From a virus, in UHGV virus genome UHGV-1837213: 27,443 nucleotides of DNA; one strand, given 5' to 3'. Made by a program: the position numbers and the translations under genes. Shown piece by piece: positions 120-27,143 of this stretch. Each line of letters starts with the position of its first letter. The stretch's first letter is position 1. Below the pieces are notes generated by a model, which ran no database searches, was not told the DNA's origin, and worked only from the letters and a program-made list of their open reading frames with translations.

Positions 120-3100
120 CATAAGCTGATCGGCTTTGTCCAGAGCCTTCTGGTATCCGGCTGCCAGTTTCTGTTGCGCTGCCTGTTCCTTCTTGGCCGC
201 ACGCTGCGAGGCGTTAGCTGATCGTTGGGCTGCTTTCTCGGCGGCTGCGGCATCCTGTTCACGAGCTTTAGTCAGTGCAGCAATGGCTGCGGCACGCTCT
301 TCATCGCTCATTTTCTCCAGAGAGCTGGCGCTGGATGCTTTCTGCAAATTAAGCTGCGTCTTGAGTTGTTTAGGCCCAATAATCGGCTTACCTTCGAAGT
401 CCATCATCGGAGTGCCGTCAGGCAAAGTACGTTGATAAGTCGCAGAATCCATCTGGTTTCGCATATATTGCGCCAGCGCCTTCTGAGCAGCTTTATCAGT
501 TGTACCTAACCCAAGAACAGTCCCCTGGTTTGACATTACGCCCTTACCAGTTTTGGCCGCGTTATCTCTCTCGAACTCTGCCTGAGTCAGCTCCTGAGCA
601 ACGGCTTCCAAATGCTCCTGATAACCACGAATACTGCCTTGCAGTTTCTGGATCTGCTCGGTATTTCCATCCTTTTTGGCTTTTTCAAGCTGATCATTAA
701 GAGTCGCAATTTGCTTCTCGGTCGCATTCTTACGAGAAGAAAGTGAATCAACCAGTTTTTGCGCAGGCTCCAGATAGCTTTTGTTTACCGTTTCACGTAA
801 CGGTGCCAATAGCTTGTTCTTTTCGTCATCTGAAAGTGAACCGTCATCATTGATTTTCTGGATCTTATCCAGAGCCTCTTGCCGGGCTTTCACGAATGTT
901 GCCGCGAAAATCTGGTTTTCCGCTCGAATTTTCTCAATCTGAGATTCGGCAGCCTCTTTAGCCAAACGCTTTGCTACAGCGCCGTCACCAAGAGCTATCG
1001 TGCCGGTTATCTTTTGATACTCCTCCTGATTTTTTTTCAGGCGTGCTTCGATGTCAGCCTTCGACTCTTTGTGAGTAATAACACCGGCAGAGTTAGATAC
1101 GTAATTAACACCCTCACCAGTTTTTAATGCTCGTTGATCAGCAAGAATCTGCTTTTCGAGCTTTTCTGCGCGGTCGGCCATTTGTGCACGTTTGGCCGCT
1201 GTCATCGCTTCTGGTATTTTCCTAATCTCGTCAACGACCTTTGAAGTTTCGCTGCGGAGCATGGTCATGTACGTGATTAGGCCAGCAACAGCTACAGTGG
1301 CAACTGTAAATGCTGCCCCTATAGGGTTTGCTGCAATGAACGCCGTTAATCCAGCAAAAGCGCCTTTAAGCCCCGTAATCGCCCCACGGATGGCGAAAAT
1401 AAGAGAGGGGATCGGAGCCAGCCCCATACGTGCCGCACGATTGAATCGAGTTACTGCTGTAGCGCCGAGGTTAAATGGAGTCTGTATGGCGGTCGCCATC
1501 GTGGCAAAGGTGCTAACCATCTGGCTCCCAGCGCCAACTACCCCCATGATCCCTGCTCGCATCAGTTTGAACGCAACCATCGCGGCCACGACCTTACCGA
1601 GATTAATTACCAGCTCTTGGTTCTTTGCTAACCATTGAGCAAGCTGACGCAACCCATCGATTGCCGTTGTTAACCCCGAACCTAAAGAATTGGCAAACGA
1701 AATCCCTTCGGCGCTATTCATGATTGAAGCCAGTTCTTTCATCCCCTTCGATAGAGAATCCAGATATCCGGCCTGACCAACCCGATCAGCAAATAACGTG
1801 AATGACGTCTGAAGTTGCGCCAGCGCACCTGTGTAGGTTTGCATCATGTCTTTCGCTGCGTTCTCATTCTCCGCACGCAGACCAACAAACATCAGAGACA
1901 ACGCCTGTTTTGCCTCAACCGTACCGCTGGCAACGGCTTTAGTCAGTTCCCCCATAGTGATGCCTGCGGCGTCTGCCATTGCCTGCATCGCGTTAGGAAC
2001 GGCTTCACCTAATTGCTGACGTAGCTCTTCCATTGACACAACGCCCTTACCGGACATCTGCTGAACGGCCACAGCCGCACGTTTCAACAGCTCACTATCA
2101 CCACCAAAACGAGCAACGGAGTCCACCAGCGCCTTCAGAGAACCATCGGTTGGATCTAAGCCAGCAGAACGAAACTTCACGAAGGAGTCTGTTAACGCCT
2201 GCATCGCGAACGGCGCATTTTGAGCCATGTCTACGATGTACTTCATATCATCAGCGGCAGCCTGGCCCGGGTTGGACTTCTCCTTATTCAACCCTCGAAG
2301 CATCACCCGCATACGTTCCATTTCGGCCGCAGCTTCAACAATAGGCTTCTGCCACCCAAACATGATGTCAGTAACCGTTCTGGCTGCATCTCCGATCTCG
2401 CCAAGCAGGAAAATGTTGCCACGCAGGCCAGAGAACATACCTCCTTCGTTACTTTTACCGCTATGGCCAGAAGCGCCGCTACGCCGCCCGCTACCACCAT
2501 CACCACTTCCAGATGTACGAACGCGTACCGGCTTGCTAATCAGTTGCTGACGTCCGATAACTTCGTCCATCTGCTCACGAACCTTTTTCAGTCCCTCGGC
2601 AGCCTGACTCGTTGTGACACCCCAATTACTGAGTCGCTTCGTCGTGGTATTAAGGCGCGTATTCATGCCACTCACGGACGCAGAGGCTTCTTTGACCTCC
2701 GTACCAAAGCGGCTTGCGCTTTTGCTTGCATAGGTCGCCCAATCAGAGAAATCATTTAGCTCTGATTGCACTTTACGTAATGACGCGGTGAGTTTATCTA
2801 CTGAAGAAGTTGTCGTATCGACGCGCTCAATCAGGGCTTTAAGACCAGAATTGAGGCTGGTGATGTTGCCACGCATTTTACGCGTAGCATCTGAAGCAAG
2901 CTCAAAACAGGCAGCTACATCCTGTAGTTTATCTGCCGTAGAATCGAGCTTGCTTTCCAGAACGCCAATGATACGGGCGACCGAACCCAAAGAGCGTTCA
3001 AAGGTTTGGATTTTTTGAGCAGGCTTTGTTACCTGCTCACCAAATCGAGTAAGCAGTTTCCCCGCACGATCGATTGACGCTGTAAACTGTTTGTCTTCCA

Positions 3101-10071: not shown

Positions 10072-11646
10072 TCACTCGTTCTCTTGAGTAGATGAGTCCC
10101 CATTCCCTCGGGGTTGATCTTGCCCGCTTTCTTGGGCTGCACCACGATCATAAGTAAGTACTGACTTATTTTCAAGGGTATTTAGATCATTTTTTGGCGG
10201 AAAATTCAAGAGATCTTTATCAAATTCCTTTTTCATCGCCTCAGTAATGTTCGGGAAAATCTTCTCAATAAGCATTTCCATCTGGTGACGACGTACAGAG
10301 TCCGGTGCCTGAAGTAATGACAGTTTCTCGGCAACAGAAAATTCATCAGTAAGGCCACGAATATCGAAACTTTCTGGATACGCAATTAAAGAGTGGTCTT
10401 CGTCCAGATCTACCCCCATCCATTTCGCAACCAGTAGCATGATTTGGCGTTCAGCCCTTTCCAGACGCTCTGCTTTTGTGACAAGCAAGCTATTTACACG
10501 CTGGAAGTCATACATTTTTGCGGCACCAGATGAATTATCGATTCCCTGTGCGTTGTCCTGCTTCGTTCGCTCACCAGCTACACCAACTGAATGGTAGATT
10601 TCGTTAATCACCGTCTTAATCGTAGTGATGATCATCTGAGCTTGTTTCGGGTCTGGTGACAGATAAAACGGCTGGTTTCCACCTTCAGAATCGTAGGTGA
10701 AGACTCGCTTTGTGCCCATTTCAAGCACTTTAGTGTGGTTTTCATCACCAGGTAAAAGCGACTGTACCGGTATAGCCAACTGGCTAAATGTCTGATCCTG
10801 AATAATGGCATCAAGGTTTGACAGATAGTTTGCAACCGCACGATCAAGATAAGCGATATCATCGATCAACGATGGGCTGAAATACGGTGATTCACTTTCT
10901 CCAATACAATCAACAGGAAACACAGGAACTACGCCGAGATTATGCTCACCGCTATCCTCTAAAATAACTTTTGCCTGACGGCGACCTGCTCCACCAGCGC
11001 CCTTCTTCACTTCCTCACGGAACAGATACCACTCGTTTTGTGTCCACAGACGATAACGTTGGTATTCCTGACCTGTAGAAGTAAAAGGATCTGCGTCATC
11101 ACGAGCGACTTCCACAATTAACGCCCACAACATATTCCCGTCGTCGTCCCATGCCACATCCAGCATTTGCTGAGGTGAAATCCAGTAGGCGTAGGCGCGA
11201 GCATCTTTCTTTTTCTCGTCAGCTACTGACTCAACATCACCACTCATCGTGCTATCGACAACAACCCATATGCGACCGTAAATAGACGACTGCAAATCAA
11301 TGGCGGCCATAAATGAGTCAATAGAGGCATTCTGGCGAGTCGCACGTTTCCAGAAATTGCGGATCTGCTCTGGTGCCTCTTCGATATTTCTATGAATGTC
11401 TTCTTTAAAGAGATATTTGTTGATGAGGTTTACCACCTCACGAGTGTGGTTGAAGCGATAGGCACGCTCAACACGCTCCTTAAACTCCTGATCTCCCTCT
11501 TTAAAGTAACGAAAGATATTGTCTGTAAACCAACCACGCCCGCCAGCGTAAGTGCTGGCGAGGAAGTCCCAATGTTCTTTTTTCTTTTCGTATTCCGGGT
11601 GGCGTCGCGCCACCAGATCCTTAATTTGTTTGTCGTTCAATTCCAT
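10072..11646 (-). CDS. Portal protein, 524 aa
   Basis: Large ORF immediately downstream of the large terminase, with an acidic C-terminal tail; conserved position. Confidence 0.8.
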   Translation of the reverse strand: MELNDKQIKDLVARRHPEYEKKKEHWDFLASTYAGGRGWFTDNIFRYFKEGDQEFKERVERAYRFNHTREVVNLINKYLFKEDIHRNIEEAPEQIRNFWKRATRQNASIDSFMAAIDLQSSIYGRIWVVVDSTMSGDVESVADEKKKDARAYAYWISPQQMLDVAWDDDGNMLWALIVEVARDDADPFTSTGQEYQRYRLWTQNEWYLFREEVKKGAGGAGRRQAKVILEDSGEHNLGVVPVFPVDCIGESESPYFSPSLIDDIAYLDRAVANYLSNLDAIIQDQTFSQLAIPVQSLLPGDENHTKVLEMGTKRVFTYDSEGGNQPFYLSPDPKQAQMIITTIKTVINEIYHSVGVAGERTKQDNAQGIDNSSGAAKMYDFQRVNSLLVTKAERLERAERQIMLLVAKWMGVDLDEDHSLIAYPESFDIRGLTDEFSVAEKLSLLQAPDSVRRHQMEMLIEKIFPNITEAMKKEFDKDLLNFPPKNDLNTLENKSVLTYDRGAAQESGQDQPRGNGDSSTQENE

Positions 11647-13756: not shown

Positions 13757-14023
13757 TTACATCACCAGTAACTTCGCTTTGGCTCGACCTAAAGTAGTTA
13801 ACCCAAGAGTTCGGCGGTGATAGCGATTGTCACTGCGTTGGCGCGTATGCCCTTTCTCCACCAGCCCCTTTTTTATCAGAGCGCGAATTGAGAACTGGAT
13901 ACTTTGCTTGGTTGTCTTGTACGGCAAAACTTCAAGCAATTCGTCCAGGTCAAGTAGATGACCTCGCTCATAACCGAGATTGAGCGTTTTGATGATGTCC
14001 TTTTGTTTATCGGTTAACGTCAT
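13757..14023 (-). CDS. Small basic protein, possible winged-helix DNA-binding protein, 88 aa
   Basis: Last gene of the coupled operon. Basic C-terminus with HTH-like segment KQSIQFSIRALIKKGLVEKG. Confidence 0.5.
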   Translation of the reverse strand: MTLTDKQKDIIKTLNLGYERGHLLDLDELLEVLPYKTTKQSIQFSIRALIKKGLVEKGHTRQRSDNRYHRRTLGLTTLGRAKAKLLVM

Positions 14024-17241: not shown

Positions 17242-18801
17242 ATGACTGTTCGGATTGTATCTAACGCAGTAAATGCGCTTATTTCTGGCGCAGATGACAA
17301 GGTAAAGCAACTGGTGCAGCAAATGTTGAGCTACGAAGTCGAGACTGGCGACTGGAAGGGCACAAGCACGATGTTCAACTGGAGTAAAAACTCGTTCCCT
17401 GCTGGCTTTGCCAAGCCTGTAGCGGCGAACTTGAACAAGGCGGGCATCAAATGTGTTCATATCCGCAAACACAAAGCCCCGGCGCTTGGTAAACCAAATC
17501 CGGCGGTTAACCCATTCCCATACAATCCTGATTATGCGTATCAGGATCAGACTGTGGAAACACTGGTTCGAGAGGGAATGATGATTGCGCAGATCGCTAC
17601 TGGTGGCGGGAAATCTAACGTTGCCTGCAAAGCAGCTGCACGTATCGGTCGAATGACATTATTTTTAACAACCCGCTCTGTTCTGATGTTTCAAATGGCC
17701 GAAAACTTCCAGAGATCCATCGACTACCGCGCCGAAAATGGCGAACCGTGGTTAAAGGGCCAAAAGGTTGGAGTCATTGGCTCGGGTGAGTTCCAGGTAT
17801 CACGACATATCAACGTCGCTACAGTTCAAACTCTGGCAAGTTTCCTTGAAGAACCACCACGCGATGCAACACCAGATAAAAAGAGCTACCACCTCAAACG
17901 TCGGGAGCTAGTGAAACGCTTCCTTTCAAGTGTGTCTCTGCTTATTCTGGAAGAAGCGCATGAGTCTTCAGGCTCTAATTTCTATGACATTGCCAGATTA
18001 TGTGTGAACGCAGACTATCGTCTGGCGCTTACAGCCACGCCGTTCATGAAGGATTCGACGGAAGCCAACATGCGCCTGATGGCGGTGGCCGGGCGAATTG
18101 AAATTAAAGTCACAGAAAAGTATCTGATTGATCGAGGCATTCTGGCAAAGCCGTACTTCCTTTATCATAAAGTTGCCTACAAGCCAGACGAGGCCAGAAT
18201 CAAGGCCGAACTTGCCAACAAACACCTCAATTTTAGAGTTGGTATGAGCACCGCCTACCAAAAGGCTTATCAGTTGGGGATCGTGTATAATTTGGGACGT
18301 AACGAGGCCATAGTGCGCGAGGCATTGCTTTATAAGCAACATTCACTCAACTGCATGACTCTGGTTCGTCTTAAACGCCACGGGCAAATCCTGATGGAGA
18401 TGATGAAGGAGTCAGGTCTTAAAGTTGATTTCATCTATGGGGAATCTAACCAGACGACAAGGCAAGCAAAGCTGAATAGTTTAGCGTCTGGTGAAATAGA
18501 TGTTTTAATAGGCTCGACTATTCTGGATGTTGGTGTTGATGTGCCAAGCGTTGGTGCGGTCATTCTTGCTGGTGGTGGGAAAGCAGAAGTTGAAATGAGA
18601 CAGCGTGTCGGTCGTGGCTTACGAGCCAAAAAAAATCAGGCAAACGTGTGTTTTATCACTGATTTCATTGACATTAGCAACAAATACCTGTTGTCTCACT
18701 CTTATGAGCGAAAACACATCATCGACACCACACCTGGCTTTGCAGAAGGTGTATTGCCTATTGATGGAGCATTCGATTTTGGAGTTCTGAAACGAGATTA
18801 G
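17242..18801 (+). CDS. Superfamily 2 (DEAD/DEAH-box-like) helicase, 519 aa
   Basis: Motif I ATGGGKS, motif II LILEEAHES, motif III LALTATPF, motif VI QRVGRGLR. RBS AAGGAAAGAGG. N-terminal domain of about 110 aa of unknown function. Confidence 0.85.
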   Translation: MTVRIVSNAVNALISGADDKVKQLVQQMLSYEVETGDWKGTSTMFNWSKNSFPAGFAKPVAANLNKAGIKCVHIRKHKAPALGKPNPAVNPFPYNPDYAYQDQTVETLVREGMMIAQIATGGGKSNVACKAAARIGRMTLFLTTRSVLMFQMAENFQRSIDYRAENGEPWLKGQKVGVIGSGEFQVSRHINVATVQTLASFLEEPPRDATPDKKSYHLKRRELVKRFLSSVSLLILEEAHESSGSNFYDIARLCVNADYRLALTATPFMKDSTEANMRLMAVAGRIEIKVTEKYLIDRGILAKPYFLYHKVAYKPDEARIKAELANKHLNFRVGMSTAYQKAYQLGIVYNLGRNEAIVREALLYKQHSLNCMTLVRLKRHGQILMEMMKESGLKVDFIYGESNQTTRQAKLNSLASGEIDVLIGSTILDVGVDVPSVGAVILAGGGKAEVEMRQRVGRGLRAKKNQANVCFITDFIDISNKYLLSHSYERKHIIDTTPGFAEGVLPIDGAFDFGVLKRD

Positions 18802-21379: not shown

Positions 21380-21396
21380 TTAAAGGAGCTTTGAAA

Positions 21397-21600
21397 ATGG
21401 TCAGCTATGACAAGATCCGCGCGGAATATCGCGCAAAGTATCGCGCTTATAAACTAGAATTAATCGATGATTTAATCGCGCAACGCGACCAATTAAATTT
21501 TACGTTTTCTGATTTGCTTAACAGCAAGCGAGATTGCAAGCGCAAACGTGAATACTTACGTTTAAGCGCATTAATCGGAAAACTTCAAAATTCTATTTAA
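21397..21600 (+). CDS. Hypothetical small basic protein (ORF track 21352..21600; start probably ATG at 21397)
   Basis: The ATG at 21397 is preceded by AAAGGAG. The longer ORF would read through the hairpin. Confidence 0.5.
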   Translation: MVSYDKIRAEYRAKYRAYKLELIDDLIAQRDQLNFTFSDLLNSKRDCKRKREYLRLSALIGKLQNSI

Positions 21601-21620
21601 TTTTTTTAAGGAGCTTAATC

Positions 21621-21930: not shown

Positions 21931-22342
21931 GTCTTTAACTCACTCCAACAACATAAAAATAAGCGCCAAAATAACGCCATAAACGCGCTTTTATATCCTT
22001 ACCAGTACATACCCATTACTTAACACATTAACGCGCTTAAAACGCGTTATATTGCGCTATAGCGTATGGTTAATCATTGGCTTTTAGTCTTGCTATGTGA
22101 TCCGCGTTTATTTGTCGGCGCGGATCGGCATTTTGTTTTGTTCCGTATCCGCTCGCGTATTATGTGCGCGTGATTTTTCACATAATCACACCACTTAATC
22201 ACGTATGTGATTATGCTACGAAAGAAATCTGGATGTCTCAGGCGACGAAAGTCATCATAATTTTCCCCGCTCGCCTGTCCGACAACCGCTGGTTGGATTC
22301 CACCAGCTTCCCGATGTTTTTTTCTACATAAAGGCGAATGCA

Positions 22343-22456
22343 GCCGTTTCCCGAAAAAATCCTGGCCGTTTCCCGTCGGCTCATGAATACGTTCCTCGCC
22401 GTTTCTGAAAATTTCCCTGCGGCAGCTGGTGGCTATAGAGAAAGGGCCGTTTCTGG
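22343..22456 (+). repeat. Iteron-like direct repeats (4 copies of GCCGTTTC(C/T)(C/T)G)
   Basis: Copies start near 22343, 22365, 22398 and 22446, all in the same orientation. Confidence 0.6.
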
Positions 22457-22468
22457 CCCTCTTCTCAG

Positions 22469-22951
22469 TTACACGCCATCAAGGATGTGGATGCGGTTGC
22501 TTGCGTATACATTCAGCATAAAGTTAGCGCAAAACAGTTTCCATGTATCAACGCCAGCGGTATACGTAATGTTTTTGCATTTAATCGCATTGTTGGCGAT
22601 CCGCATCCCCTGCGATACTGCTTCATCGTCGGAAAATTTGAACGACGATTGAGTTTTAATCCAGACAGAAATCTGCGTAGCGAACTCAATCAGCTTGGAC
22701 TGGCAGAATCGCCCGGAGCGCACCGGAAAGACGAACGTTCCGAATCCAGAATTTACCACATATGCTTTCTCAAATACCCGCGAGTAACGACGATTGCCAA
22801 TGATGTCGCGTGCAATAATGCATTTTTCTTGTGCTGACAGTTCTACCGTCTCATTGTCGCGCCATGCACCAAGTACTCGTTTTTCAATGTCAGAGAACGT
22901 TACAGCGATATTGCCATGTGCGGGTGCGTTTACAGTAGCGATAAAATTCAT
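22469..22951 (-). CDS. Hypothetical protein, 160 aa
   Basis: AAGGA RBS 8 nt upstream of the ATG; preceded by the conserved promoter/leader element. Confidence 0.6.
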   Translation of the reverse strand: MNFIATVNAPAHGNIAVTFSDIEKRVLGAWRDNETVELSAQEKCIIARDIIGNRRYSRVFEKAYVVNSGFGTFVFPVRSGRFCQSKLIEFATQISVWIKTQSSFKFSDDEAVSQGMRIANNAIKCKNITYTAGVDTWKLFCANFMLNVYASNRIHILDGV

Positions 22952-22972
22952 GATTAATTCCTTATCGTAAAT

Positions 22973-23005
22973 AACAAATTGTTTTCTTGTTGGTGTTAAT
23001 TATCG
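22973..23005 (-). promoter_or_regulatory. Conserved promoter/leader element, copy A
   Basis: Minus-sense CGATAATTAACACCAACAAGAAAACAATTTGTT with a -10-like GATAAT, and TTGACG about 15-16 nt upstream. Confidence 0.55.
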
Positions 23006-23124
23006 TTGTACGAATAAGGCGTCAAAGTGGAAAGTTGCGGTAGCCGGACGGGAACAGGTGGGTTTGTCGGTTGCCTGGAGGTAAGAGGTTGGTGTTTTTA
23101 GCCTGCGGGAAACAGGATGGTCAT

Positions 23125-23152
23125 TTAAGGCCACCAGCATTGGTGGCCTTAA
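23125..23152 (-). terminator. Hairpin terminator containing a Chi octamer (minus orientation)
   Basis: TTAAGGCCACCA-GCAT-TGGTGGCCTTAA, 3 nt after the stop of the 93-aa gene; contains CCACCAGC. Confidence 0.5.
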
Positions 23153-23155
23153 TCT

Positions 23156-23437
23156 TTAGTGGAGCAGACCGATGTCGATGGTATCCCCTGAATCATCCAC
23201 ACGGATCATCAGCATGGCAAAGGCGTTTAGTGGATAGCTTGCGTGCCATTCAGGGAAGCGGTCATCTCGCATGAAGTCGGCAATGTCGTAAACGCATCCC
23301 TCAAAGTGGAAGAATCGCGTGCTTACCTGCTCGTCATAATCCACATGATCCATTTCTTGCTGTTCTGTTTCCGGCAAGTCCAGCCATGATTCAAGAAATA
23401 CATTTTGTGCTTTAGGGGTAATGGTGAAATCAGTCAT
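23156..23437 (-). CDS. Small strongly acidic protein, 93 aa (ORF track 23156..23569; ATG at 23437)
   Basis: The conserved element lies inside the longer ORF. The ATG at 23437 is preceded by TGAGGA. About 19 Asp/Glu against 5 Lys/Arg. Confidence 0.6.
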   Translation of the reverse strand: MTDFTITPKAQNVFLESWLDLPETEQQEMDHVDYDEQVSTRFFHFEGCVYDIADFMRDDRFPEWHASYPLNAFAMLMIRVDDSGDTIDIGLLH

Positions 23438-23457
23438 GAGCATATCCTCACTGCGTA

Positions 23458-23489
23458 AACATGTTGTTTTCTTGTTGGTGTAATTATCG
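23458..23489 (-). promoter_or_regulatory. Conserved promoter/leader element, copy B
   Basis: Minus-sense CGATAATTACACCAACAAGAAAACAACATGTT. Confidence 0.55.
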
Positions 23490-23595
23490 CAGTGTAGATA
23501 AGGCATAAAAGAAGTTAATACAGGCTGAATACACAAGAAAGGTTCTGGAAGTTGATAGCCAGGTTTCAAACTAACCTTCGGTTATTAAAAGTCAT

Positions 23596-23623
23596 TTAAG
23601 ACCACCAATGCTGGTGGCCTTAA
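23596..23623 (-). terminator. Hairpin terminator containing a Chi octamer (plus orientation)
   Basis: TTAAGACCACCA-ATGC-TGGTGGCCTTAA. Same stem as the 23125 copy but with the loop inverted; contains GCTGGTGG. Confidence 0.5.
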
Positions 23624-23626
23624 TAA

Positions 23627-23770
23627 TTATCGCCCGATTACGCTAAGGATCTTTTCCTCAACTGATTTGTTGTTGCGACTAAACTGCCTTGCGTATCTGA
23701 TGACAGAAGAGGCGTTTTGCTTTCTGACCATCTCGGCTCTTTCCTTCAGGCGTTTCTTGAAATCGCCCAT
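23627..23770 (-). CDS. Possible small basic protein, 47 aa (below the ORF-track size cutoff)
   Basis: ATG 2 nt after the stop of the 124-aa gene. Peptide MGDFKKRLKERAEMVRKQNASSVIRYARQFSRNNKSVEEKILSVIGR. Stop immediately before the hairpin at 23596. Weak RBS. Confidence 0.3.
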   Translation of the reverse strand: MGDFKKRLKERAEMVRKQNASSVIRYARQFSRNNKSVEEKILSVIGR

Positions 23771-23772
23771 AT

Positions 23773-24147
23773 TTACCACCAGGCGCAGAAGGTCAGTCTG
23801 TTATTGTGAAAGTCGTGGTTCTTAATCAGATCTTCCACAAGCTCTTTCAACTCCCCCACATCATGCCAGTAACCTTCATCGTACTCCTGACTGCCGAAGA
23901 AAAAACCTTCCCGGGTAGGCAAGTACTCTTCGCAATTACTTTCGTTTATGTGCATCAAATGAGCCTTCAGAAAACAAATGTCATTCATCGTTAATTCTAA
24001 AAGCTCACAATTTTCGACTTCACCTACGTTGCGCTCCATCCACCCAACGAGCGCATTGAACTTACGGAAGTAAGCAACCTGCTTTCTGGATGCCTCGTTA
24101 TTCAGATCGTTTTTAGGCTGTGTCTCGATATAGATATCAAGTCCCAT
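23773..24147 (-). CDS. Small strongly acidic protein, 124 aa (ORF track 23773..24189; ATG at 24147)
   Basis: AAGGAA RBS 7 nt upstream of the ATG at 24147; acidic composition. Confidence 0.6.
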   Translation of the reverse strand: MGLDIYIETQPKNDLNNEASRKQVAYFRKFNALVGWMERNVGEVENCELLELTMNDICFLKAHLMHINESNCEEYLPTREGFFFGSQEYDEGYWHDVGELKELVEDLIKNHDFHNNRLTFCAWW

Positions 24148-24204
24148 GATGGTTTCCTTATTAAGTTGCTTCAGTGAAATCATTTTCACAAATCAGATAA
24201 GGCA

Positions 24205-24225
24205 GAAAACAAATTGTTATCTGGC
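24205..24225. promoter_or_regulatory. Degenerate or inverted copy of the conserved element core (copy C)
   Basis: AGAAAACAAATTGTTATCTGG, containing the palindrome AACAA-A-TTGTT. Confidence 0.35.
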
Positions 24226-24231
24226 TTAATA

Positions 24232-24256
24232 AAATGGCGCGGTTTACGCGCCATTT
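24232..24256 (-). terminator. Rho-independent terminator after the 131-aa gene
   Basis: Stem AAATGGCGCG/CGCGCCATTT followed on the minus strand by TTTTATT. Confidence 0.6.
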
Positions 24257-24264
24257 AAAGAGGA

Positions 24265-24660
24265 TTAAGCGAATACGCTTTCAGGGATTAAGGTGTCGGC
24301 AGGAATGCCAGAGGTAATGCGCAGGCCGTACTGACCAATCCAGGTAGTGTTGGTATTCAGGTTGGAGGCGAATACGGTGTTAACCATATTCATCATGGTT
24401 TCAAACACCTCTTCATCAACCTGGCGGAAGTAGCTCTCGATTTTCAGCAGCAGCGGGTCAGTTGCATCGAGAATGGACTGGTATTGAGTCGCGTACTCGC
24501 CGTCGGAGTCATCACCTTTACGCACGATCGTACTGGCCTGTACTTCGGCGCCAGTTTCGGTGTTGTACGTAACAACGGTGATTTTTGCCACATTCTTACC
24601 TTCGGCGGTTTCAGAGGCATAGTAAACATCAACTGTCAGTTTTTCGCGTTTAATGGTCAT
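24265..24660 (-). CDS. Hypothetical acidic protein, 131 aa (ORF track 24265..24726; ATG at 24660)
   Basis: GGAGA RBS upstream of the ATG at 24660. A sigma70-like promoter TTGTAA-17-TAGAAT overlaps the palindrome GTAAGTATGTACTTAC (about 24704-24719). Confidence 0.6.
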   Translation of the reverse strand: MTIKREKLTVDVYYASETAEGKNVAKITVVTYNTETGAEVQASTIVRKGDDSDGEYATQYQSILDATDPLLLKIESYFRQVDEEVFETMMNMVNTVFASNLNTNTTWIGQYGLRITSGIPADTLIPESVFA

Positions 24661-24723
24661 TTCACTCTCCGTAGTGTATTGGTTATTTTTATATTCTATG
24701 ATCGTAAGTATGTACTTACAATA

Positions 24724-24752
24724 CAAAAAAGCCCCGTAAGGATGGCGGGGCT
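24724..24752 (-). terminator. Rho-independent terminator after the 103-aa gene
   Basis: Stem AGCCCCG/CGGGGCT followed on the minus strand by TTTTTTGTAT. Confidence 0.7.
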
Positions 24753-24786
24753 GTCGTACTGTCGACTAATTACCACTTGCACATTA

Positions 24787-25098
24787 TCAGGCTATTGCCA
24801 TCACTGATGCTCTCTGAATCTCTTGCTGGGCCACGCGGTTAACTTCCATCAAGGCCAGTTCGAGCTGATGTTCCGGCCACATTCTTTGAAATGCCACCCA
24901 GCCTTTTCCACGCTGGCGACGAACATTCATTACATAACGAGTAAAGGTGTTTTTATCGAAAGACACCGCTGTTTCACGGAACAGACGAATAGAGGTTCCA
25001 TTGGCAACGATGTCCAGCAAAGTTAATTGAGCAACCAGCGCAGGCTTCTCTTTTCTCTTCTGGTCTTTGTCCAGACCAAGAACCAATGATTTTTTCAT
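24787..25098 (-). CDS. Small basic protein, 103 aa (ORF track 24787..25128; ATG at 25098)
   Basis: GGAG RBS 5 nt upstream of the ATG at 25098. Basic composition, possibly nucleic-acid binding. Confidence 0.55.
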   Translation of the reverse strand: MKKSLVLGLDKDQKRKEKPALVAQLTLLDIVANGTSIRLFRETAVSFDKNTFTRYVMNVRRQRGKGWVAFQRMWPEHQLELALMEVNRVAQQEIQRASVMAIA

Positions 25099-25110
25099 CA
25101 CAACTCCGTA

Positions 25111-25144
25111 AACAACTTGTTTTCTCAATGGCGTAAATAATACC
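25111..25144 (-). promoter_or_regulatory. Conserved promoter/leader element, copy D
   Basis: Minus-sense TGGTATTATTTACGCCATTGAGAAAACAAGTTGTT; extended -10-like TGGTATTAT with TTGTAG upstream. Confidence 0.5.
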
Positions 25145-25224
25145 AGTAAGAAAACGGCTACAAAGCATAATGATCAGGTGCATGATCGATATGCAGGTTC
25201 TTCCCTGCGGCTATAGAGAAATTA

Positions 25225-25241
25225 AGCCAGCAATGCTGGCT
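25225..25241 (-). terminator. Hairpin terminator after the 109-aa gene
   Basis: Stem AGCCAGC/GCTGGCT followed on the minus strand by TAATTTCTCT. Confidence 0.45.
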
Positions 25242-25251
25242 TTGGTTGGGA

Positions 25252-25581
25252 TTACGCGAATACCTCAAGAAACTCCTGAACGTCCCAATGCTGGACGAGG
25301 TGAAGATAGACCTTAGAAATCACGTCATTTTCGCTATCGCATGTGAAGTAGTACTTCTGGCTGCGGTTGTATGTGTCCACACAAAATTCGCTCATATCCA
25401 TAAAGTCAGCATCTTCACCCATGTCGCAAATCATCAAAGCAGGTGCATCATCACGAGTCATCAGCTCAAGCACCCACCGCGAATTGATCAGAGTGGAAGA
25501 CCAACCTTCCAGCTCATAGAACTGGTCAAACTCTTTTTGAGTCAATTTCTTGATTTGGTTGATGTCGATATGTGCAAACAT
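25252..25581 (-). CDS. Small strongly acidic protein, 109 aa (ORF track 25252..25602; ATG at 25581)
   Basis: AAGGA RBS 7 nt upstream of the ATG at 25581. About 21 Asp/Glu against 8 Lys/Arg. Shares an RDD...ADFM-like segment with the 93-aa protein. Confidence 0.6.
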   Translation of the reverse strand: MFAHIDINQIKKLTQKEFDQFYELEGWSSTLINSRWVLELMTRDDAPALMICDMGEDADFMDMSEFCVDTYNRSQKYYFTCDSENDVISKVYLHLVQHWDVQEFLEVFA

Positions 25582-25594
25582 AAAGCAATCCTTA

Positions 25595-25626
25595 AACAAC
25601 ATGTTTTCTTGATGGTGTTATTATCG
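25595..25626 (-). promoter_or_regulatory. Conserved promoter/leader element, copy E
   Basis: Minus-sense CGATAATAACACCATCAAGAAAACATGTTGTT. Confidence 0.55.
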
Positions 25627-25944
25627 CAATAACGCACAGGCGAAAAAGGATTTTATTCCGGTGAATGTGGTTTTGGCAGTGAGTTTTCAGGTTCAGTACC
25701 GAGAACACTTTTTACATTATTCTGATTTAGTGGCCGAAGGTGGCTGGTGGGCAGAATAATCATCTCCCCGAAAACCTACTGAAATCGATTGTGACCCGTT
25801 GGCTGTCTGGCACAATTACGCTGTAGCTGGGCATTCAGAGGGAATCCAGCGGTAAGTAAGTTCGCCTGCACGTGAGCGCCTCTCTTCTTCCCGCACATTA
25901 CAGGTGGGTAGCCGCAACTCTCCCTCACGCTATACCGGTACGCC

Positions 25945-26076
25945 GCCGTTCCTGAACCGGCATCGAGCCTTTTCCCGAAACCCACACAGGCAACTCGACC
26001 GTTTCCCTGAAAACCTCCAGCCGTTCCCCGAAGGCAACCCAGCCGTTTCTGTAGCGGGATGCAACCTTTTCCCTGT
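25945..26076 (+). repeat. Iteron-like direct repeats (6 copies) with about 22-bp periodicity
   Basis: Copies of (G)CCGTT(T)CC(C)GAA-like sequence starting near 25945, 25967, 25997, 26020, 26042 and 26065. Confidence 0.6.
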
Positions 26077-26130
26077 ATGGACCGAAGGCTGACCGTAGGG
26101 GTGTTACGGGGGATAAAATCAGGAGTTGAA

Positions 26131-26161
26131 TAAATACGAAAAAGGAGGCGACACCCCTCCT
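26131..26161 (-). terminator. Putative terminator at the end of the skewed ORF-free region
   Basis: Minus-sense AGGAGG-GGTGTCG-CCTCCT followed by TTTTTCGTATTT. Confidence 0.45.
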
Positions 26162-26990
26162 TCCCTCCCCACTTATACATACCTGGCTTCTTCGCTATAC
26201 ATGTTGTGTTTTATCTGTCTCAACCTCTCTATAGGCGTTAATGCTCACTCCTTCCAGAATGTTCTATACGGCGACTATTTCTGTTGGTGAATTGGGCGTG
26301 TTGTTCTCTCTGTCGGTGTAAATGGTTTCGTTCGTTTTGCGGTGGTTCTTCTATGGGGTGTTCTCGTCGTTTTGGTGATTGTTCTTCTCCGTGTATGGAG
26401 TAATGGCAGGTGGGCGATTGCTTTCGTTATTGTGTTTGAGTTGTTTGTCTGGAGTGTGTGAAAGGCTTTTGTAGTTATTCGTGTATTGGGTAATGGCGTT
26501 TCCCGTGATTGTTATGTTTCGTGTCTTTTGGGATTGAGAGAAACCTTGCGGTTACAGGCTTCGTTGGGGTTTCAGCGGTTCAGGTGTTTCTTCGCTGTTT
26601 GGGTAATGGCGTGTCGTGGGTATCGCGCGTATGAATGTTTTCGGATTGCCTGTGAAAGTTAGGTTGGTTGTCCGGTAGCCTGGGGAGAAGAGGTGGGTCT
26701 TTTCGGTAGCCTGCCATAAAGAGGTTGGTTGTTTTGGGGAATGGCATGTGTGTTATTTAGTTGTTTTGTTATGCCTGAAAATAAGTTGTTTATATGGTTG
26801 TGTAACGCAACGGGAACGATTTTGAGCGTGTGTTTTTGTTGGTAGTGTGTTGGGTCGTCTGTGGTGAAAATTGGACGCTGTGGCGCTGTCTGCTGCGTAG
26901 AATTACGGGTATAAGCAGTGATGTGTGAAAACGTCAATTTTTTAGACCAAATCGGATGAAAGCGTTGATGTTTCGTTGATCTGTTATTCA
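26162..26990 (-). ncRNA. Candidate long untranslated transcript or structural DNA element; ORF-free with extreme strand skew (G+T rich on plus, C+A rich on minus)
   Basis: No convincing ORF on either strand. One sampled 60-nt stretch was about three quarters G+T. Bounded by a copy of the conserved element (about 26991-27011) and a terminator-like hairpin. Internal short repeats such as GGGTAATGGCG and CGGTAGCCTG. Transcription is inferred, not shown. Confidence 0.3.
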
Positions 26991-27011
26991 GTTGTTTTCT
27001 TGATTGTATAA
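26991..27011 (-). promoter_or_regulatory. Conserved promoter/leader element, copy G
   Basis: Minus-sense TTATACAATCAAGAAAACAAC at the upstream edge of the skewed region. Confidence 0.4.
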
Positions 27012-27143
27012 ACAACTATAACTTATTGATATTTAAGGATGTGATTGCGGGTATGGAAGGGGAGTAGTGGCGATCAACGGATTCTTATAGAAAAGAATCA
27101 AATTGTGACCGCCATTATCAACGGTTTGAATCTGTTTGCAGAT

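Follow-up and report, generated by a model that had tools for sequence, protein, structure and literature searches.

Two copies of one hairpin in the accessory region of a phage-plasmid carry the Chi octamer of the enterobacterial host, counted here as exact matches to 5'-GCTGGTGG-3', on opposite strands, which raises the question of whether this mirror-image arrangement is a protective device or a by-product of how the region evolves. A sequence-only reading of the locus had raised the former as a possibility. We favor the latter, with a probability of about 0.62 for the explanation as a whole: gene-end hairpins are copied, cassettes are inserted and deleted at them, and inversion of the hairpin loop leaves the orientation of Chi as a by-product. 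The DNA analysed, referred to here as the window, is a stretch of 27,443 nt from an SSU5-like phage-plasmid of E. coli (pLF82/phage Cyrano type). It matches pLF82/phage Cyrano, pTIC, and many phage-plasmids of E. coli and Shigella at 98-100% identity, and its closest relatives have E. coli and Shigella as hosts. Phage-plasmids of the SSU5 type are common among clinical Enterobacteriaceae, with resistance genes among their cargo, and the gene turnover in their accessory region and their coexistence with RecBCD have been little studied. The whole element encodes ~125 proteins, and the depositors' annotation of Cyrano includes RecA/UvsX-like, UvsY, gp32-like SSB, SbcCD-like, RuvC, and UvsW genes. 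The region around the hairpins is variable, with gene content that is unlike between the E. coli-type elements, SSU5, the Klebsiella relative, and other relatives, and with seven small genes that have no Pfam match. A Pfam search with ten small proteins gives no match and PHROGs returns only families of unknown function, while Rfam (at gathering thresholds) and tRNA scans across the window find nothing. The features discussed below are listed in Table 1.

Table 1. Coordinates of the features of the window (position 1 is its first nucleotide)
Feature	Position	Strand	Description
Chi	2123..2130	-	region of minus-strand structural genes, probably coding-sense; strand and gene from annotation of related records and the pattern of Cyrano's coding Chi
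Chi	10991..10998	-	region of minus-strand packaging/structural genes, probably coding-sense; strand and gene from related annotation
Chi	13858..13865	-	region of minus-strand genes, probably coding-sense; strand and gene from related annotation
Chi	18568..18575	+	inside plus-strand UvsW-like helicase gene, sense
Intergenic Chi	22300..22307	-	3' arm of Chi/near-Chi palindrome 22288-22307, GCTGGTTGG-ATT-CCACCAGC
Iteron-like array 1	22343..22455	+	GCCGTTTCCC units, 22-bp spacing
Intergenic Chi	22425..22432	+	within iteron-like array, ~10 nt from stem-loop 22443-22460
Direct repeat copy 1	23120..23153	.	34 nt = GTCAT + hairpin + T; from alignment break-points
Hairpin 1	23125..23152	-	TTAAGGCCACCA-GCAT-TGGTGGCCTTAA; 12/12 pairs; 4-nt loop, AUGC in minus-strand RNA
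Chi, hairpin 1	23131..23138	-	sense strand of the genes; would act on RecBCD heading to higher coordinates
Cassette interior	23154..23590	-	spacer, promoter/operator repeat, gene B
Gene B	23156..23437	-	93-aa ORFan, phrog_1845; third-codon-position variation
Promoter/operator-like repeat	23457..23511	-	upstream of gene B; GATAAT ... AAGAAAACAAnTTGTTTA
Direct repeat copy 2	23591..23624	.	34 nt; from repeat search and alignment break-points
Hairpin 2	23596..23623	-	TTAAGACCACCA-ATGC-TGGTGGCCTTAA; stem of hairpin 1, loop inverted
Chi, hairpin 2	23610..23617	+	would act on RecBCD heading to lower coordinates
47-aa gene, CYRAN_109 homolog	23627..23770	-	stop codon precedes hairpin 2
Intergenic Chi	25743..25750	+	loop of 9-bp inverted repeat, 25716-25760
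Iteron-like array 2	25967..26051	+	orientation as array 1

The sequence-only reading had described two copies of a 12-bp stem with reverse-complementary loops that place Chi on opposite strands, and this anatomy is confirmed on direct inspection: the loops are exact 4-nt reverse complements, so Chi reads on the minus strand in hairpin 1 and on the plus strand in hairpin 2. The stem of hairpin 2 has a single A.C mismatch on the plus strand, which is a G.U pair in the minus-strand RNA, and the RNA of hairpin 1 has a dG of -23 kcal/mol (z -3.6). A comparable hairpin pair appears in none of 100 shuffles of the window. Each hairpin is preceded at 3 nt by a TAA stop codon, that of gene B for hairpin 1 and that of the 47-aa gene for hairpin 2, and the lysogen expresses CYRAN_109, the gene immediately preceding hairpin 2, at six times the background (PMC9928086). 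Hairpin 1 is an ancient gene-end stem-loop with orthologs in SSU5, Klebsiella, Yersinia, Enterobacter, Citrobacter, and Cronobacter, and its outer stem differs in sequence across genera (TTAAGG/CCTTAA versus GAGAG/CTCTC) while the pairing is kept. The SSU5 ortholog, GGCCACCA-TGC-TGGTGGTC followed by TTTTAT (UUUUAU in RNA), has the canonical form of a terminator. In the window, TTAA stands in the place of the U-tract and pairs with an upstream TTAA, and the stem grows from 8 to 12 bp; because of this replacement, the termination efficiency of the window hairpins is uncertain. On the gene strand, UUAAAUGA comes after hairpin 1 and AAAUGACUUUUAAU after hairpin 2, and since neither is a proper U-tract, efficient intrinsic termination is doubtful. 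A terminator scan flags hairpin 2 on the minus strand and hairpin 1 on the plus strand only. The hairpins thus share with intrinsic terminators a GC-rich stem-loop directly after a stop codon, a U-tract in the SSU5 ortholog, and a 10-bp stem that serves dozens of unrelated bacteria as a classical terminator, and they differ from them by the TTAA behind the window hairpins. We infer from these features a function in termination or at the 3' end, and the window hairpins may act as 3'-end stabilizers or processing sites instead of terminators.

The unit shared by the two copies is wider than the stem and spans 34 nt, including the 5' flank GTCAT; because this flank is direct in both copies, the loop alone is inverted. 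Alignments with relatives break exactly at 23153 and 23591, with an overlap equal to the 34-nt repeat, and these end-points, seen directly in the alignments, define a presence/absence cassette of 471 bp that consists of the promoter/operator, the 93-aa ORFan, and one hairpin. In PLSDB, ~450-720 SSU5-like plasmids match this region; the cassette is present in ~88 close plasmid relatives, and exactly 471 bp are missing in ~130 of ~220 E. coli-type plasmids. The absence is also precise in relatives L006, L007, L012, L017, L027, and others. Other modules occupy the same hairpin: relatives L008 and L127 carry an extra ~1-kb insert at hairpin 1 beside gene B, and L018 has an insert of similar ~1-kb size in place of the gene B cassette. 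The promoter repeat at 25595-25649 is in turn the end-point of another indel, of ~370 bp. The promoter/operator motif recurs upstream of at least 12 genes, with at least five copies in the hairpin region, and contains a palindromic operator-like element. Its reading as a promoter comes from a -10-like hexamer and from its position; the match to a -35 element is poor, and a generic promoter scan shows no enrichment. Other types of mobile or repeated hairpin were considered and rejected. The repeat is shorter than an integron attC site (34 nt versus a palindrome of at least ~57 nt) and lacks GTTRRRY or RYYYAAC cores, and a REP/MITE-type inverted insertion, or a hairpin inserted both ways, does not agree with the direct GTCAT flank in both copies and the absence of core sites.

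In the explanation that we favor, both hairpins would be copies of one conserved terminator-type stem-loop in the minus-strand transcripts of small genes, and together with 5 nt of common flank they would form the 34-bp direct repeat that bounds the 471-bp module. Homologous recombination between the repeat copies would delete the module and probably also insert it, a mechanism suggested by the end-points of the indels rather than by observed circles or recombinants. This hairpin and the repeated promoter/operator would also be the places where other modules are swapped, and with such exchange the region would evolve like the hyperplastic regions of T4-type phages that are flanked by promoter-early stem-loop (PeSL) cassettes (Arbiol et al., 2010, PMC2839356; Comeau et al., 2014, PMC4122927). 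In both cases, the small ORFans of a hyperplastic region lie between repeated stem-loop and promoter or promoter-like motifs, these motifs contain the end-points of insertions, deletions, and replacements that distinguish close relatives, and T4-like recombination proteins are encoded. Unlike the PeSL phages, the element here is a siphovirus phage-plasmid and not a T4-type myovirus, its stem-loop and promoter/operator lie 85-98 nt apart instead of forming one compact motif, its promoter has no good -35 and has a palindromic operator-like element, and its stem is CCACCA/TGGTGG with Chi and not polyG/polyC. PeSL shuffling also involves mini-circles that arise from recombination of flanking motifs. 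A short regulatory hairpin is the end-point of cassette gain and loss, a mode documented before mainly in T4-type phages.

The polymorphism of the loop was observed directly in a survey of 55 hairpin copies from 36 related contigs. The loop is GCAT in 20 copies and ATGC in one in the context of hairpin 1, GCAG in four and CTGC in one where a single hairpin is present, and CTGC in two and GCAG in one in the context of other cassettes. At least three independent flips are required, with both GCAT/ATGC and GCAG/CTGC found at one same locus, and because loops flip this often among the related contigs, the opposite orientation of the Chi pair is a by-product, not a device. The inner stem is CCACCA/TGGTGG, and when its two neighboring loop bases are GC, one strand contains Chi. 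Inversion of the 4-nt loop, by template switch or arm recombination, shifts Chi to the other strand and would give the two copies their opposite orientations. Loops are likewise inverted in the minute inversions of chloroplast hairpins. Loop inversion is a documented outcome of template switching (Monttinen and Loytynoja, 2022, PMC8794818), and the cases described there share with the hairpins here a loop replaced by its exact reverse complement, an unchanged stem and flanks, and recurrence of the change in the sequences of close relatives. The difference here is a possible functional side-effect, the flipped polarity of Chi. A trivial mutation can reverse the polarity of a Chi site, and ordinary mutational dynamics of hairpins can produce a striking 'mirror-image' arrangement, which calls for caution when such arrangements are interpreted.

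A census of Chi in the window gives nine sites, five in the accessory region and four elsewhere, versus 0.65 expected from dinucleotide shuffles. The five local sites within ~3.45 kb had been counted correctly before, including three placed near 22293, 22424, and 25743, whose exact starts are 22300 (minus), 22425 (plus), and 25743 (plus); the earlier count elsewhere was two instead of four, and its total seven instead of nine. The clustering claimed from these sites is weak in this element: for five Chi in 3.45 kb, the scan-statistic P is 0.08 in the window and 0.10-0.12 in the whole element, and it rises to 0.47 when both hairpins count as one event. The Chi density of the window is not different from the 1 per 4.6 kb of E. 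coli (Poisson P=0.15), an outcome that the sequence-only reading had itself named as counting against it, as far as density is concerned. All five local Chi are intergenic, and they are the sole intergenic ones among the 25 of Cyrano. No motif beyond the octamer, which would hint at another binding site, is common to the nine sites.

Across the family, Chi itself is abundant. It is among the three most frequent octamers of pTIC, Cyrano, SSU5, and the Klebsiella relative, at ~5 times its one-mismatch neighbors (in pTIC, 25 Chi versus a mean of 4.7 for 24 such neighbors), and genomes contain 25-31 Chi versus 4.5-7.5 expected from an order-2 Markov model. On average, one Chi is found every 4.3-4.5 kb in the E. 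coli-type elements, every 3.3 kb in SSU5, and every 4.1 kb in the Klebsiella relative. These counts indicate that Chi is selected element-wide and kept at a host-like density, with exposure of the DNA to RecBCD as the most likely cause, although RecBCD as the selective agent is our inference. Because the element carries T4-like recombination proteins by annotation, a dependence on RecBCD and Chi is not obvious. The enrichment agrees with that known from phages with DNA exposed to RecBCD: P1 has 50 Chi in 94.8 kb, and the lambdoid LLS has 23 (Zheng et al., 2025, PMC12315714; Bobay et al., 2013, PMC3784561). In these phages, as here, few if any octamers outnumber Chi, which is far above the expectation from composition and is not explained by neighboring octamers; they are also temperate, and P1 is likewise a plasmid prophage. 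In contrast, they have ~1 Chi per 1.9 kb and not the host-like 1 per 3.3-4.5 kb found here, LLS has an orientation bias (20:3) that is absent here (13:12), and part of the Chi of this element lies in intergenic hairpins. Chi-rich lambdoids lack a Rec module, whereas this element carries its own recombination genes by annotation; Chi enrichment, known from P1 and some lambdoids, reaches the SSU5-like family despite such genes.

These results bear on the proposal that the opposite pair and the cluster are selected to block RecBCD from either side and thereby protect linear replication or packaging intermediates. Chi acts on RecBCD by polarity, and with a minus-strand site on the left and a plus-strand site on the right (22300/22425 and 23131/23610), RecBCD from either side would meet an active Chi first. 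Close opposite pairs also occur in the homologous region of Klebsiella (75501-/75645+, 76256+/76351-, 78124+/78173-) and of Enterobacter (491-/660+, 1270+/1365-, 2759+/2813-). The homologous accessory region holds the densest Chi window in 4/4 genomes examined, and the cluster of the Klebsiella relative, eight Chi in 3.65 kb, is significant (P ~0.002). Every intergenic Chi of Cyrano lies in the hairpin region, and a concentration of Chi near origins and packaging sites has been reported (Bobay et al., 2013, PMC3784561), which also counts for protection. However, both loop orientations are found at a single locus among close relatives, ~60% of the E. coli-type relatives have a single hairpin only, and the clustering in this element is not significant. 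The strands are balanced (13+/12- in Cyrano, 19+/12- in SSU5, 11+/16- in Klebsiella), unlike the 20 of 23 Chi that point one way in LLS. Orientation domains related to replication or packaging were also sought and rejected: the best two-arc partition gives P 0.22-0.58 in four genomes, and the switch points disagree. The terminase genes are ~10 kb away, no DNA end is known at the hairpins, and hairpin arms with template switches make inverted octamer pairs without selection. The specific enrichment of Chi and the invariance of the hairpin 1 site (see below) thus agree with the protection idea, while its orientation, density, and strand balance do not, and we consider it unlikely that the arrangement is a selected shield.

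The individual sites differ in their conservation, and the evidence for selection on each site is mixed. Seven diverged lineages share an unchanged Chi in hairpin 1, while the other arm of its stem varies. By hand count, the hairpin 1 core has six changes, all in its 12 non-Chi positions (P ~0.05), and three of the six are on the opposite arm, where two break a pair and one leaves a wobble; the partner base of the T of Chi is A, C, or G across lineages. The site seems to be under its own constraint. Coding was rejected as the cause of the conserved ATGCTGGTGG. The loop-ATG ORF is 46 aa long here and 58 aa in five other genera, nonsynonymous changes dominate in it, and its variable columns are distributed 11/11/10 by codon position, whereas the real gene that adjoins it shows substitutions of 4/5/11; without a coding signature, this ORF does not explain the conservation of the hairpin 1 Chi. 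In Klebsiella and Enterobacter, Chi is also present at another hairpin locus that shares the hairpin 1 core. SSU5, Klebsiella, Enterobacter, Citrobacter, and Cronobacter have a Chi in the orientation of the 22300 site, at a distance that varies, and Yersinia has lost it. In contrast to the invariant hairpin 1 site, the 22425 site is repeatedly lost: it is kept in Klebsiella, Enterobacter, and Citrobacter and lost at least six times by different single changes (SSU5, Yersinia, Cronobacter, L007, L012, and L018). Some hairpin copies, in L022 and L018, have also lost Chi.

Such losses would be expected if the arrangement were pure coincidence, that is, if a TGGTGG stem with GC at the loop edge had produced a functionless Chi, followed by duplication and loop inversion, and if the excess reflected chance and ancestry. 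A pattern scan of GTDB returned mostly unrelated terminators, which we took as a null sample and not as relatives, and among these unrelated bacterial hairpins with the same stem, Chi is present in 10 of 83 (12%), equal to the chance expectation of 2/16. Counting the hairpin pair as one event, with its scan P of 0.47, points the same way. Coincidence is nevertheless an improbable account, given the family-wide rank of Chi among octamers, the Chi at the second Klebsiella and Enterobacter locus, and the invariance of the hairpin 1 site in spite of a changing partner base. In addition, with the hairpins collapsed, intergenic Chi arose independently three times within ~1.9 kb of non-coding sequence, versus an estimated ~0.08 expected from composition.

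Chi in the border hairpins could also have a role in the exchange itself, as a Chi-activated PeSL that stimulates RecBCD-RecA exchange and drives cassette gain and loss. The end-points of the indels coincide with the Chi-bearing 34-bp repeat. After Chi recognition by RecBCD, the RecA-loaded 3' end terminates at Chi, and by this mechanism it would fall within the repeat. With 34 bp, the repeat is also about as long as the shortest homology reported to support RecBCD-dependent recombination in E. coli. On the other side, the promoter repeat, where other indels end, is devoid of Chi, the element brings UvsX/UvsY-type recombination genes of its own, and T4 recombination of this type handles homologies of <50 bp (PMC2839356). 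We regard a Chi-driven hotspot as very improbable. It is also improbable that Chi is kept deliberately in the gene-end hairpins, with the cassette borders as two-polarity RecBCD signals and preferred exchange sites and with loop inversion as a reversible switch. If this were true, gene-end hairpins would be the only intergenic places that tolerate the G-rich octamer, a Chi-terminated 3' end inside the 34-bp repeat would favor cassette exchange at the borders, and terminator, Chi, and recombination site would be combined in one element, which is undescribed so far.

The surroundings of the other local Chi sites are diverse. A common origin of all of them as relics of one hairpin module was rejected, since the flanks of the 22300 and 22425 sites have no significant similarity to it. 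The stem-loop at 22443-22460, close to the 22425 site, follows a 160-aa gene, and the two iteron-like arrays flank the region on either side. The downstream flank of the 25743 site matches that of hairpin 2 at 14 of 24 positions (P ~0.002), and this Chi, which lies inside a conserved island (GGCTGGTGGGCAG) in the alignment with Klebsiella, may be a decayed copy of the hairpin 2 module.

Both hairpins (see table) have the anatomy described in the sequence-only reading: they share a 12-bp stem, their loops are exact reverse complements of each other, and Chi consequently falls on opposite strands, minus at 23131 and plus at 23610. The likeness spans 34 nt (23120-23153 and 23591-23624), and because the 5' flank GTCAT is in direct orientation within both copies, the element is a direct repeat with the inversion confined to the loop. 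The minus-strand RNA folds into 12 pairs at each hairpin (dG about -21 to -23 kcal/mol; z = -3.6 and -4.4), and the one mismatch of hairpin 2, A.C on the plus strand, is G.U in this RNA. On the minus strand a gene ends in TAA 3 nt ahead of each hairpin, and the one at hairpin 2, CYRAN_109, is among those transcribed above background in the lysogen (Misson et al., PMC9928086). The SSU5 ortholog of hairpin 1, which follows the orthologous gene, reads GGCCACCA-TGC-TGGTGGTC then TTTTAT and is predicted to be a canonical intrinsic terminator, and dozens of unrelated bacteria have the same 10-bp stem in classical terminators, between an A-tract and a T-tract. TTAA has replaced the T-tract in the E. 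coli lineage; by pairing with a second TTAA upstream it lengthens the stem from 8 to 12 bp, and how efficiently this form terminates is uncertain. The outer stem varies in sequence across genera with its pairing kept, which supports selection on the structure.

Features in the window (positions in nt; lists of single positions are Chi octamers)
Feature	Position	Strand	Sequence or context
Hairpin 1	23125-23152		TTAAGGCCACCA-GCAT-TGGTGGCCTTAA
Hairpin 2	23596-23623		TTAAGACCACCA-ATGC-TGGTGGCCTTAA
93-aa ORFan, phrog_1845	23156-23437	minus	hairpin 1 after its stop
47-aa gene, CYRAN_109	23627-23770	minus	hairpin 2 after its stop
Operator-like palindrome	22973-23027, 23457-23511, 25111-25165, 25595-25649, 26991-27014	minus	A(A/G)GAAAACAAnTTGTTTA
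Chi	2123, 10991, 13858, 22300, 23131	minus	
Chi	18568, 22425, 23610, 25743	plus	
Small hairpin of near-Chi and Chi complement	22288-22307		GCTGGTTGG-ATT-CCACCAGC
Iteron-like arrays	22343-22455, 25967-26051	same orientation	GCCGTTTCCC, 22-bp spacing
30-nt tandem repeats	23035-23124 (three copies), 26670-26730 (two copies)		(T)CGGTAGCCTGG..AAGAGGT.GGT
Repeated units	26385-26615		GGGTAATGGCG

Judged by sequence, the window and its ~110-kb plasmid relatives are SSU5-like phage-plasmids. Plasmid pTIC (MF554642) is 100% identical to the window over 22000-26000, pLF82 (deposited also as Escherichia phage Cyrano) is 98.5% identical there, and many ~110-kb E. coli and Shigella plasmids show ~99% identity to the first 25 kb. 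In order, the window contains the tape-measure gene, head and terminase genes, a UvsW-like helicase and small hypothetical genes on the minus strand.

The best-supported reading is that a terminator-type gene-end hairpin also acts as a short direct repeat, through which a cassette would be gained or lost. Alignments of relatives (IMG/VR, GTDB, metagenomes) break at exactly 23153 and 23591, overlapping by the 34-nt repeat, and these relatives have one hairpin only, with the left flank of hairpin 1 joined to the right flank of hairpin 2. The whole 22960-23800 segment is present in 88 PLSDB records, and ~130 E. coli-type PLSDB records match it in two pieces spanning 370 bp, so that exactly 471 bp are missing from them; a single hairpin is found in ~60% of close relatives. 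The missing unit consists of a spacer, the promoter/operator-like repeat at 23457-23511, the 93-aa gene and one hairpin copy. Two related contigs (L008 and L127) have an extra ~1-kb insert at hairpin 1 with hairpin copies on both sides, and a third (L018) has a ~1-kb insert between its hairpins in place of the cassette. A second indel, of ~370 bp, has an end-point in the promoter repeat at 25595-25649. The 93-aa gene and hairpin 1 are an old combination, shared by Yersinia pMT1, Salmonella, Enterobacter, Citrobacter, Cronobacter and Klebsiella; hairpin 2 with the 47-aa gene was seen in the E. coli type only. A further indel, 21392-21603, is missing from several close relatives (L014, L017, L022, L024) and lies upstream of convergent terminators. 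In a contig labelled as a Bacillota MAG (JAEWTL010000044.1), the SSU5-like two-hairpin locus is, around the sites checked, ~98-100% identical to the window; this contig probably comes from an enterobacterial phage-plasmid and was mis-binned.

The opposite Chi orientations had been suggested as a possible protection from RecBCD from either end, but neither the loop polymorphism nor the polarity statistics nor the test for clustering within the element supports a dedicated two-way shield. With CCACCA/TGGTGG as the inner stem, GC at the two adjacent loop bases always creates Chi; it is present in 10 of 83 (12%) unrelated hairpins with the same stem, exactly the 2/16 expected by chance, and loop inversion shifts it to the opposite strand. 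We grouped 55 hairpin copies from 36 related contigs by flank context and found the loop to be polymorphic inside one and the same context: GCAT (20 copies) and ATGC (one) at hairpin 1; GCAG (four), CTGC (one) and ATGC (three) in the single-hairpin context; CTGC (two) and GCAG (one) in the other-cassette context. Three or more independent flips are needed to account for these variants. Template-switch mutation is documented to invert the loops of hairpins (PMC8794818), and together with the recurrent flips this argues that the mirror-image Chi orientation arose by loop inversion, as the product of a frequent, neutral-looking mutation.

Chi is enriched, but element-wide. The window holds nine, against 0.65 expected from dinucleotide shuffles; the five in the accessory region had been correctly counted from the sequence, and those at 13858 and 2123 had been missed. 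There are 25 Chi in pTIC (113 kb, ~1 per 4.5 kb, octamer rank 2), 25 in Cyrano (108 kb, ~1 per 4.3 kb, rank 3), 31 in SSU5 (103 kb, ~1 per 3.3 kb, rank 1) and 27 in the Klebsiella relative (110 kb, ~1 per 4.1 kb, rank 1). Trinucleotide composition predicts 4.5-7.5 in the first three, and the 24 one-mismatch neighbours of Chi average 4.7 in pTIC. The family density is close to the 1 per 4.6 kb of E. coli, and the nine sites in the window are no excess over it (P=0.15). The strands are even (13:12 in Cyrano), and a two-domain test found no significant orientation domains. These counts place the SSU5-like family with the known Chi-rich phages P1 and LLS (PMC12315714, PMC3784561), from which it differs in its lower Chi density, lack of polarity and own recombination genes. 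Outside the window, five consecutive minus-strand Chi occupy the interval that separates the Pol III alpha gene from the RepA region in Cyrano (47-68 kb; four of five antisense to genes) and SSU5 (47-59 kb), and the structural module of Cyrano has seven of its eight Chi on the plus strand; the two-domain test was not significant.

The proposed clustering in the accessory region is not significant within this element, where five Chi in 3.45 kb give a scan P of ~0.1, or 0.47 with the duplicated hairpin counted once. All five are intergenic and are the only intergenic Chi of Cyrano. The densest 3.5-kb stretch of Chi lies within the homologous region in four of four genomes (pTIC, Cyrano, SSU5 and the Klebsiella relative, the last with eight in 3.65 kb; P ~0.002), and a regional excess of intergenic Chi of both polarities across genera is a real but unexplained feature.

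Evidence from single sites on Chi maintenance is mixed. Klebsiella keeps sites orthologous to 22425, 23131 and 25743 at 76-78% overall identity. Chi 22425 sits in a generally conserved iteron-like block and has been lost through six different single changes (SSU5, Yersinia, Cronobacter and contigs L007, L012 and L018). The hairpin-1 Chi is invariant in seven lineages, while the base facing its T varies (A, C or G) and further changes fall on the opposite arm; the core shows no change in the eight Chi positions against six in the 12 others (P ~0.05, hand count). Coding does not explain this conservation, since the minus-strand ORF starting at an ATG in the hairpin-1 loop (23000-23140; open in six genera, with 46 aa here and 58 codons in five other genera) shows no coding signature, with 11/11/10 substitutions over codon positions; it was rejected as a gene and is open through strand composition. 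Several more Chi lie in or beside terminator hairpins in other genera, often as close opposite-orientation pairs; selection for both polarities is one reading of this, and another is that inverted repeats and template switching naturally give rise to such pairs. The hairpin's Chi is probably maintained within the element-wide, host-like Chi load. The Klebsiella (L133, 5040-5135) and Enterobacter (L138, 2740-2835) relatives have a second locus at which a terminator hairpin shares this core, GCCACC-loop-GGTGGC then TTTT on the gene strand, again with Chi at the loop-stem junction, 49-54 nt from an opposite-orientation Chi inside the upstream gene.

In the promoter/operator-like repeat the palindrome AAGAAAACAAnTTGTTTA comes after a -10-like GATAAT. 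A dozen or more genes have this repeat 7-81 nt upstream, in sense orientation, and it is the source of the element's most frequent octamers (AGAAAACA, 26-29 times). In Cyrano the palindrome occurs at 12 or more intergenic sites, directly downstream of GATAAT/TAATAA, and the combination is probably a regulon-wide promoter/operator. The architecture is functionally like the PeSL (promoter-early stem-loop) cassettes of T4-type phages (PMC2839356, PMC4122927), but here stem-loop and promoter repeat are 85-98 nt apart, the promoter has no good sigma-70 consensus, and the carrier is a siphovirus phage-plasmid, though one annotated with UvsX/UvsY/UvsW/gp32/gp46-47-like genes.

The iteron-like motif is clustered in the whole element at its two arrays only, which flank the small-gene cassette region and are kept in Klebsiella, SSU5, Yersinia, Enterobacter, Citrobacter and Cronobacter relatives; they are candidates for an origin, a partition site or a regulator site. 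The ~0.9 kb at 25780-26670 has no convincing gene and no Rfam match, shows a strong plus-strand excess of G+T (GC skew +0.27, AT skew -0.34), holds the repeated units listed in the table and is 68% conserved with SSU5; the ORF annotated there in Cyrano, CYRAN_104, is not called by RefSeq. Of the two sets of 30-nt tandem repeats, the first separates hairpin 1 from the next promoter, and the second is at the 3' end of an ORF that is itself doubtful.
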